64,000 nt of DNA from Escherichia coli (GCF_030384885.1 NZ_CP128613.1), one strand, 5' to 3'. Shown: positions 40,087-41,037, counted from the stretch's first letter. Numbers and translations are program-made. The notes: generated from the letters alone by a model not told the origin.

Positions 40087-41037
40087 GTGTATAAAACTGT
40101 ACATTCATACAGCAAAATGAGTTCTACTATGGCACTGGAAAAAGGAATTGCAGAGTTAGTCGAAGAGTTTATCGCTGCGGGTCGCCCCTCATCGCGTCAA
40201 CAAAGTATTGCGCAGCGCAGGGAGGGCTATATCGCCAGCGCTGTCCTTGCGGGTGAGACAGAAACGCGGGTAGATATTCAGACTATCGAACTTGAAGCGA
40301 TGACCTTACGAATAGTGTCGCCGCTGAATGCCCCTACATTACTCCCGACGATAATTTATTACTACGGTGGCTGTTTTGTTAGCGGCGGGTTCGCAACTCA
40401 CGACAACCAGCTGCGCCAGTTAGCCTATTACGGGCAATGTCGGGTTATTGCCGTCCAGTATCGGCTGGCACCGGAACATACTTTCCCCGCCGCCCATGAT
40501 GATGCGCAGCGAGGTGCAGAATTAGTCTGGCAACACGCCGAACGACTCGGCGTTGATAAACAACGGATAACTCTCGCCGGTGACAGTGCAGGTGGGCATC
40601 TGGCGCTGGTAACTGCTTTGCGATTAAAGCGTGCTGGCGAGTGGCAACCAGCACAACTCATCTTAATTTATCCTATGCTTGATGCGACTGCGCATTTCGA
40701 AAGCTACATACGCAATGGTCACGATTACATCATCACACGCGACACTTTACTGAGCGGCTTTGAGATGTACCTGCCAGGCATTGAACGCAGGCATCCTGAA
40801 GCCAGCCCTCTTTGGCGCGATGATTTCAATGGCTTGCCGCCTGTACATATCATTACCGCTGAATACGACCCACTTTGCGATGAAGGTGAAGCGTTGTATC
40901 ACCGCATGACAGAGCAAGGAGTGCAATGCACCTGCCAACGCTACCTTGGCGTTATCCACGGATTTTTTCAGTTAGGTGGTATCAGTGAGGCTGCGCGATC
41001 GGCGCTACGGGATGTGGCCTGGAGAGCGGGAAGGTAA
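40087..41037 (+). CDS. alpha/beta-hydrolase, HSL-family carboxylesterase/lipase
   Basis: Nucleophile elbow GDSAGG, oxyanion-hole region YYGGCF, C-terminal VIHGF; start uncertain (in-frame ATGs at 40087, 40117 and 40129). Confidence 0.8.
   Translation: MYKTVHSYSKMSSTMALEKGIAELVEEFIAAGRPSSRQQSIAQRREGYIASAVLAGETETRVDIQTIELEAMTLRIVSPLNAPTLLPTIIYYYGGCFVSGGFATHDNQLRQLAYYGQCRVIAVQYRLAPEHTFPAAHDDAQRGAELVWQHAERLGVDKQRITLAGDSAGGHLALVTALRLKRAGEWQPAQLILIYPMLDATAHFESYIRNGHDYIITRDTLLSGFEMYLPGIERRHPEASPLWRDDFNGLPPVHIITAEYDPLCDEGEALYHRMTEQGVQCTCQRYLGVIHGFFQLGGISEAARSALRDVAWRAGR

Follow-up and report, generated by a model that had tools for sequence, protein, structure and literature searches.

A predicted LexA-controlled esterase of the HSL family in Escherichia coli, probably an old resident of the fdhE-fabY interval

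A gene for a predicted esterase of the HSL family is located between fdhE and fabY (yiiD) in a stretch of 64,000 nucleotides (nt) of Escherichia coli DNA (NZ_CP128613.1). This whole stretch is termed the window in the following, and all positions are counted from its first letter. The counterpart of this gene in Salmonella Typhimurium 14028s, STM14_4846 (nlhH), was reported as a new member of the SOS regulon (Merida-Floriano, Rowe and Casadesus 2021, PMC8072944). This study lists a single LexA box with a heterology index of 7.63 at a distance of 13 bp to the ATG; nalidixic acid induced the gene 15.1-fold, and cells in the ON state of an nlhH::gfp fusion required LexA cleavage and RecA. The divergent gene STM14_4847 (higB-2) was induced 8-fold, and STM14_4846 is annotated in the supplement as a 930-nt gene for a 'putative acetyl esterase' (PMC8072944). 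In the Salmonella ortholog examined here, the published nlhH primers have exact matches within the final 40 nt and the 40 nt that come next. The distance between box and higB-2 was not exactly reproduced (184 bp published vs 164-196 nt in the loci examined).

The gene of E. coli is the ortholog of STM14_4846 and of STM4032 of strain LT2 (76% identity), and its slot, flanked by fdhE and fabY, and its orientation are the same in both species. Both Salmonella genes possess the same TATAAA hexamer and a LexA box 13-14 nt before the ATG, and toxin-antitoxin modules flank them as well. The Salmonella protein comprises 309 amino acids (aa) with the motif HGGC, in comparison to 302 aa with YGGC in E. 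coli. The toxin-antitoxin neighbours vary within Salmonella: vapBC plus higBA, vapBC alone or, in one lineage, a NadS/HigB-2-type pair as in E. coli. The Salmonella gene order is also given in PMC3868539, a retracted paper that was used for the gene map only.

It is quite probable, taking all parts of the account together, that the E. coli gene is an ancestral HSL esterase gene inherited in place, that it is the ortholog of STM4032, that it is controlled by LexA, that it carries an exchange of His79 to Tyr (H79Y) specific for E. coli, and that it is dispensable. Residues are numbered according to the 302-aa protein.

The predicted LexA box and the putative esterase promoter

The following features are located at or upstream of the start of the gene.

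40129-41037, plus strand: esterase coding sequence, 302 aa plus stop codon; the RefSeq coding sequence WP_001353711.1 shares these coordinates
40087-40128, plus strand: noncoding 5' extension of the open reading frame (ORF); found in no ortholog, conserved as DNA signals and not as codons
40095-40114: predicted LexA (SOS) box AACTGTACATTCATACAGCA, CTGT-N8-ACAG, ending 14 nt before the ATG
40090-40095, plus strand: putative -10 hexamer TATAAA (TATAA invariant in nine aligned lineages), with CTGT-N8-ACAG directly after it
40067-40072, plus strand: weak -35-like TATCCA, 17 nt upstream of the -10 hexamer
39938-39954: perfect palindrome GTACGTCATTGACGTAC (GTACGTCA-T-TGACGTAC), just upstream of the toxin-antitoxin operon
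39589-39900, minus strand: 103-aa RelE/HigB-2-like toxin (Pfam RelE weak, E=0.007)
39298-39588, minus strand: nadS, antitoxin of the NadS/helix-turn-helix (HTH) type (NCBIfam NadS 60.7 vs cut-off 60)

An earlier sequence-only reading of this DNA had taken the region from 40087 to 41037 as the esterase gene. This region is the maximal ORF on the plus strand (316 codons, first start codon GTG 40087), and all motifs named in that reading are present (YYGGCF within IIYYYGGCF, GDSAGG and VIHGF), as is DPLCDE. The start, however, had to be corrected to ATG 40129 (MALEKG...), which is used by RefSeq and by every ortholog (MALEKG, MVLEKG or a close variant). The 42 nt between 40087 and 40129 contain the -10 and the LexA box, and GTG 40087 is located inside the putative promoter.

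The motif CTGT-N8-ACAG occurs only once in the window. For its evaluation, a position weight matrix (PWM) was built from eight bona fide LexA operators of E. coli K-12 (sulA, recA, two of lexA, umuD, two of recN, and uvrA/ssb). With 15 of 20 matches to the TACTGTATATATATACAGTA-type consensus, the esterase box equals lexA box 1, recN box 2 and the uvrA/ssb box of K-12, and it reached a PWM score of 21.4 bits; the eight K-12 operators showed 14-18 matches and 14.2-25.8 bits (leave-one-out), and the box of Salmonella nlhH 15 matches and 18.8 bits. The next best site of the window scored 10.5 bits, 11 bits behind the esterase box, and the best score obtained in 20 shuffles (17.3 bits) was also lower. 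The sulA operator of K-12 is the same 20-nt CTGT-N8-ACAG palindrome next to a -10 box, and on the sulA strand (TACTGTACATCCATACAGTA) it differs from the esterase box in 3 of 20 positions. Across 14 intact loci, which represent at least five genera, CTGT and ACAG are invariant, and their distance to the ATG is 13-15 nt. In all six E. coli alleles read, LexA box and -10 hexamer are intact; the box is decayed only in the deletion remnant of the soil strain SC434.

Since the score of the E. coli operator is no lower than that of the Salmonella operator, we infer that LexA represses the esterase promoter of E. coli, with TATAAA as the probable -10 hexamer. The invariant TATAAA would then belong to a promoter that is overlapped just downstream by the LexA operator, and transcription would start near 40102. 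LexA would keep the gene switched off, and DNA damage would turn it on by RecA-stimulated cleavage of LexA, as in the case of the Salmonella ortholog. Together, the Salmonella data and the E. coli box would say that SOS control of a carboxylesterase is older than the separation of these genera and has been retained in Enterobacteriaceae. Unlike the canonical LexA operators, the esterase box would control a hydrolase without a known link to DNA repair. Since K-12 has deleted the esterase gene together with its operator, neither the textbook LexA regulon of E. coli nor the classical regulon lists contain it.

The palindrome in front of the ATG could also be the operator of the antitoxin NadS/HTH or of another regulator and not a LexA site in E. 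coli. It is located within the intergenic region that is shared with the toxin-antitoxin operon, and the divergent toxin gene of Salmonella was co-induced 8-fold. Nevertheless, this explanation is extremely improbable, as Enterobacter and lineages with vapBC in place of this toxin-antitoxin pair show the same degree of conservation of the box, and ON cells of the Salmonella fusion depend on LexA cleavage and RecA. Moreover, the toxin-antitoxin operon has a perfect palindrome of its own near its start (39938-39954), which is likely the operator of the antitoxin and distinct from the LexA box.

Family, fold and oxyanion loop of the esterase

Four motifs of the protein were located on the DNA.

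40363-40374, plus strand: oxyanion-loop motif Y79-G80-G81-C82 within IIYYYGGCF (instead of HGGG of the family and HGGC of the orthologs)
40579-40596, plus strand: nucleophile elbow G151-D-S153-A-G-G (GDSAGG), from motif reading and alignment; codon of Ser153 at 40585-40587
40867-40884, plus strand: DPLCDE with the invariant catalytic Asp247; codon at 40867-40869
40951-40965, plus strand: VIHGF with the invariant catalytic His277; codon at 40957-40959

The assignment to the HSL family, already proposed from the sequence, was borne out. The Pfam profile PF07859 (Abhydrolase_3) matched with 234.1 bits (cut-off 25; E=1.8e-69) over profile positions 1-209 of 210, and 108 solved chains of the HSL family were matched at E<=1e-10. 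An AlphaFold2 model, calculated with an input alignment of 59 homologs, showed an alpha/beta-hydrolase core with an N-terminal helical cap (predicted local distance difference test, pLDDT, 96.4; predicted template modelling score, pTM, 0.94). When this model was used for a Foldseek search, the top 50 matches were all esterases of the HSL type with template modelling (TM) scores of up to 0.95. Matches of the model to HSL esterases gave TM 0.92-0.95. The catalytic triad had been described as intact; the 59-sequence alignment was checked for a lost Asp or His, and Ser153, Asp247 and His277 were invariant, as were G151 and G155. Every test of membership in the HSL family pointed to this family except the strict HGGG motif. 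The product of 40129-41037 is, as judged from its sequence, an HSL-family (bacterial family IV) esterase of the GDSAG subgroup with predicted activity. It is probably a cytoplasmic short-chain carboxylesterase; by inspection, with no predictor run, its N-terminus has no hydrophobic signal peptide.

The solved family IV esterases Est8 (4YPV), EH1AB1/LAE6 (6I8D/5JD4), PestE (2YH2/3ZWQ) and EST2 (1EVQ) exhibit the same fold (TM 0.89-0.95, root mean square deviation about 2 A) and likewise possess the N-terminal helical cap, the GDSAG elbow, DPLxD and HGF. Their identity to the E. coli protein amounts to 33-37%, and the best aligned matches all contain HGGG, in contrast to YGGC here. To our knowledge, none of these four is SOS-regulated. 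The other HSL-family esterase of E. coli, Aes (YbaC; 4KRX, 3GA7; PRK10162), is alike in triad and fold, but it is a distant paralog (E=7e-29) with HGGG and is encoded at a different locus. We know of no LexA box for Aes. The NCBIfam equivalog cut-offs were missed for LipP1 (241 vs 350), chloramphenicol hydrolase (163.5 vs 500) and Aes (PRK10162; 140.8 vs 389), and therefore the esterase is not an equivalog of any of these three enzymes.

With regard to the oxyanion loop, the sequence-only reading had noticed that HGGG is replaced by YYGGCF. This replacement is real, the actual motif being YGGC, but it is not a single anomaly, since Cys is found throughout the clade and only the Tyr is specific for E. 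coli. HGGC is present in 114 of the 120 closest homologs and is thus the motif of the whole ortholog group. Of 143 diverse representatives of the family, 140 have His at the first motif position; at the fourth, about 80% have Gly and 11 have Cys (HGGC). Among the closest homologs, Tyr at position 79 was found only in E. coli clusters; it is carried by all 15 full-length E. coli proteins and by all five full DNA alleles that were translated. In 102 orthologs from outside E. coli, 145 alignment columns are conserved to at least 97%, and H79Y is the single change of E. coli in these columns (His in 102/102 vs Tyr in 15/15). Pairwise ratios of nonsynonymous to synonymous substitution rates (dN/dS) among E. 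coli alleles lay around 0.1 (range 0.03-0.21), which is close to the values between genera. Because of these ratios and the single changed conserved column, the gene does not appear to be decaying. As far as the alignments tell, H79Y is one specific, fixed substitution in a protein that is otherwise fully conserved and under purifying selection. A scan of the contigs with E. coli-specific peptide patterns yielded four loci and no other Escherichia species.

The only other Tyr found at the histidine position of HGGG, in sequence P0262, was rejected as a second case because it belongs to a pseudogene of this esterase subfamily that contains a frameshift (locus L033, positions 307-1185). The pseudogene adjoins the 3' end of a tRNA in another bacterium and shows YGGL, GDIAGG and VFYGF.

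In the enzymes E53 and LipN, the third and fourth residues of HGGG, both glycines, form the oxyanion hole with their backbone. By homology to these enzymes, the backbone donors would be Gly81, which is kept, and Cys82, which bears a side chain. Tyr79 would then replace His79 structurally, the backbone NH groups of Gly81, Cys82 and Ala154 would hold the oxyanion, and the enzyme would hydrolyse an ester by means of Ser153, Asp247 and His277. For enzymology, this represents a natural, selected exchange of His to Tyr in the HGGG motif with all else conserved and offers a clean test of the role of this histidine.

H79Y might also be adaptive and retune the oxyanion loop of an SOS-induced enzyme, so that in E. 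coli its chemistry or the range of its substrates would be changed; we regard this idea as unlikely. If it did apply, the conserved control by LexA would mean that the enzyme acts on a metabolite tied to genotoxic stress, e.g. by hydrolysing a genotoxin with an ester group or an acyl compound that arises from damage, and the gene would represent a previously unrecognised effector arm of the SOS response outside of DNA repair that was lost by K-12.

Probable inheritance in place and repeated loss

The position of the gene was compared among enterobacterial genomes with the aid of the following landmarks.

35868-36797, plus strand: fdhE
43435-44424, minus strand: fabY/yiiD
37455-37499, 37895-37939 and 40015-40059: three copies of a 45-nt 'promoter element' family
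40022-40041, plus strand: conserved upstream element TTTGCGAGGCGCTTTCCAGA (20-nt core, TTTGCGAGnnGCTTTCCAGA), native to the upstream region of the esterase gene
39220-39317, plus strand: copy 1 of the 98-nt repeat D1 in the 3' flank of nadS, overlapping the last 20 nt of nadS; kept next to nadS in Pseudocitrobacter
41037-41134, plus strand: copy 2 of D1, beginning at the stop codon of the esterase gene; 94% identical to copy 1

Orthologs of the esterase gene fill the slot from fdhE to fabY, always oriented alike, in Salmonella enterica, Enterobacter hormaechei, Citrobacter braakii, Citrobacter sp. Awk 4, Pseudocitrobacter and two further enterobacterial lineages; those of Salmonella, Citrobacter, Pseudocitrobacter and Enterobacter show 75-83% identity overall. 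In Enterobacter, the interval contains the esterase gene alone, without toxin-antitoxin genes. Compared to E. coli, the proteins FdhE, FabY and Dtd show 90-97% identity and the esterase 76-83%; for the DNA sequences, the identity amounts to 81-88% in the flanks and 69-75% in the esterase gene. The esterase is thus more diverged than its flanks, which is the opposite of what would be expected after a recent transfer. Its GC content (52.9%) resembles that of fdhE and fabY (54-55%; window 50.0%), in contrast to the AT-rich neighbours, i.e. the toxin gene (40.7% GC) and an ORF of 637 codons (38.3%). The upstream element, TTTGCGAG..TTTCCAGA, keeps its distance to the ATG (105-107 nt upstream) in all of E. 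coli, Salmonella, Citrobacter, Pseudocitrobacter and Enterobacter. These comparisons argue that the esterase is a fast-evolving vertical ortholog and an old resident of the fdhE-fabY interval, inherited in place.

The element has the general form TTTGCGAGnnG(C/T)TTTCCAGA, and further copies at 37462-37481 and 37902-37921 are located 92-97 nt upstream of yiiF and yiiE. The 20-nt element is perfectly kept in K-12, which has no esterase gene. The copy upstream of the esterase gene is the original, and those before yiiE and yiiF are duplicates. Copy 2 of D1 repeats the sequence that flanks nadS at its 3' end. It is absent from the commonest arrangement in E. coli, where fabY follows the esterase gene after 64 bp. 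A search of the 98-nt repeat against Rfam revealed no RNA family; the only matches were to REP-type ES036/naRNA4 near yiiF.

According to the sequence-only reading, the esterase gene is embedded in an island and arrived as a cassette, because it is located between a copy of a promoter element and a copy of a repeat. Both repeats do exist, but they do not appear to mark the boundaries of a cassette, since the upstream element is native and the downstream copy occurs, by estimate, in only about 330 of the 2,673 esterase-positive E. coli genomes. A horizontally acquired cargo gene, brought in together with the toxin-antitoxin pair in a repeat-bounded cassette of a genomic island, could account for the patchy occurrence of the esterase within E. 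coli (see below), for the 98-nt direct repeat that brackets nadS, toxin and esterase genes in window-type genomes, for the exact single-repeat 'empty' form of O157:H7 and for the AT-rich neighbours. The closest ortholog (83% identity, Pseudocitrobacter) is also accompanied by the same toxin-antitoxin pair, which furthermore precedes the esterase gene in lineage L022 and in one Salmonella lineage. Such an origin is nevertheless very unlikely. Slot and orientation are the same in every genus examined, including Enterobacter without toxin-antitoxin genes or island; the sequence of the gene has diverged further than that of the flanks, the conserved signals in front of it have constant spacing, and its GC content is at the level of the core genome, the AT-rich parts being the neighbouring genes. 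In addition, most esterase-positive E. coli genomes have no second copy of the repeat, strain SC434 has lost the inner part of the gene but retains its two ends, and no integrase or transposase domain was detected in the neighbouring genes with Pfam, NCBIfam and PADLOC. According to the reading as an old resident, the surrounding 'island' would have been built later by insertions on both sides, namely of the HigB-2/NadS-type toxin-antitoxin pair, of small orphan genes and of the orphan ORF of 637 codons. For the scanning of genomes this is a warning, as the longest-standing gene of a locus may lie amid repeats, orphan ORFs and toxin-antitoxin genes and be mistaken for cargo.

In a survey of 5,426 complete E. 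coli genomes, 2,673 were positive for the esterase gene, and 2,636 contained full-length copies. About half of the complete genomes thus carry the gene; the enteropathogenic E. coli (EPEC) strain E2348/69 is among the carriers. Four arrangements were distinguished, with numbers inferred from match counts.

Toxin-antitoxin pair - esterase - fabY: about 2,340 genomes
Window-type arrangement with both D1 copies: about 330 genomes
O157-type arrangement without esterase: about 730 genomes
No esterase and no long D1 match (K-12 and others): about 2,000 genomes

Strain O157:H7 possesses one hybrid D1 with the left flank of copy 1 and the right flank of copy 2 and has no nadS, toxin and esterase genes (1,817 bp); as read from these flanks, its junction would be the exact product of a D1 x D1 recombination. 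In K-12, window position 38696 is joined directly to 42956. The soil strain SC434 has kept the 5' end of the gene (to 40157) and its 3' end (from 40982), with an internal deletion between them, in a Salmonella-like context of vapBC plus higBA. Presence and absence bounded by the repeat hold for the window type in comparison to the O157 type; most carriers have no second repeat, and the breakpoints of K-12 and SC434 lie elsewhere. The flanking repeats explain loss as well as gain, and they make the block of toxin-antitoxin and esterase genes prone to deletion, which is the grain of truth in the idea of a cassette. About half of E. coli has lost the esterase gene by at least three different deletions; it is dispensable. 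Matches of '80-90% identity' within E. coli were considered as divergent alleles, but the one examined (SC434) was a short leftover of the gene's 5' end, located in a genome without the esterase.

Repeated loss might also indicate that the E. coli copy encodes a dead or dying enzyme, in which H79Y, together with Cys82, cripples the oxyanion loop, and that, pending its deletion, it is kept only through its linkage to the addictive toxin-antitoxin pair. In line with this, His occupies the position in 140 of 143 diverse representatives, the only other Tyr belongs to a frameshifted pseudogene, and the gene was lost in at least three independent ways within E. coli. In EST2 (PDB 2hm7), the exchange G84S, which introduces a side chain at the residue corresponding to Cys82, reportedly reduced the activity about 100-fold. 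We consider a dead enzyme improbable. The dN/dS ratios within E. coli (0.03-0.21) are similar to those between genera, the other 144 of the 145 conserved columns are untouched in E. coli, and 2,636 genomes have kept full-length copies. Furthermore, LexA box and -10 hexamer are intact in the six E. coli alleles and decayed in the one true remnant, and HGGC in all orthologs and in 11 of the 143 diverse representatives indicates that Cys82 is no recent lesion.

Several points speak against the account of an active, LexA-controlled and vertically inherited esterase. By chance, 0.62 occurrences of CTGT-N8-ACAG are expected per 64 kb, so that the case for the LexA box rests on score, position and conservation. 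A consensus scan for promoters and terminators between 39850 and 41300 yielded no site at the threshold; the assignment of -35 and -10 is weak, and the promoter is argued from conservation only. SOS control was experimentally shown in Salmonella only, K-12 is without the gene, and no E. coli report of SOS control of the esterase was found in the literature search, nor a published enzyme assay for any member of the ortholog group. Tyr at the position of a His conserved to 98% and Cys at an oxyanion-hole position could both lower the activity. Finally, synonymous sites are saturated between the genera, and vertical descent is therefore argued from synteny and relative divergence and not from a tree.

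Neighbouring genes and variation of the locus

Beside the esterase gene and the toxin-antitoxin pair, the interval between fdhE and fabY contains the following genes and ORFs.

37128-37370, minus strand: yiiF
37587-37805, minus strand: yiiE
38054-39213, mixed strands: three small hypothetical ORFs (179, 92 and 70 aa) without family match
41206-43119, minus strand: intact ORF of 637 codons, GC 38.3%

The toxin-antitoxin pair (39298-39900, minus strand) is transcribed away from the esterase gene. In this strain, the start codon of the toxin gene is ATA in comparison to ATG in other E. coli (39898-39907, minus strand), although RefSeq still annotates 103 aa, and the hexamer beside the start reads TACAGT here and TATAAT in other strains. 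The toxin may therefore be poorly translated in this strain.

The genes yiiF and yiiE are tandem orphan antitoxin genes of the ribbon-helix-helix (VapB-like) type. SC434, Salmonella and Citrobacter have retained the partner gene vapC, whereas the window shows REP-type sequence in its place (Rfam ES036 at 37001-37043 with a score higher than the gathering score; window 36798-37127, locus L010 2784-3400). The three small ORFs are present or partly deleted across the E. coli arrangements of this hotspot between yiiE and fabY.

Neither the small ORFs nor the 637-codon ORF matched an entry of Pfam, NCBIfam or PADLOC. Relatives of the latter were found only in E. coli and Shigella (eight clusters, at least 74% identity). 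In a near-identical strain, RefSeq labels this ORF as 'transposase' and pseudogene, without support by a profile. The copy of O157:H7 has an internal stop at codon 331, and K-12 keeps only the first ~54 codons.

The region from 34087 to 44205 differs in one base from that of strain 2013C-4282 (NZ_CP027579.1), whereas 47 single nucleotide polymorphisms in comparison to the same strain were counted to the right of 44206, a position inside fabY (44206-46914). This abrupt change suggests a recombination boundary inside fabY.

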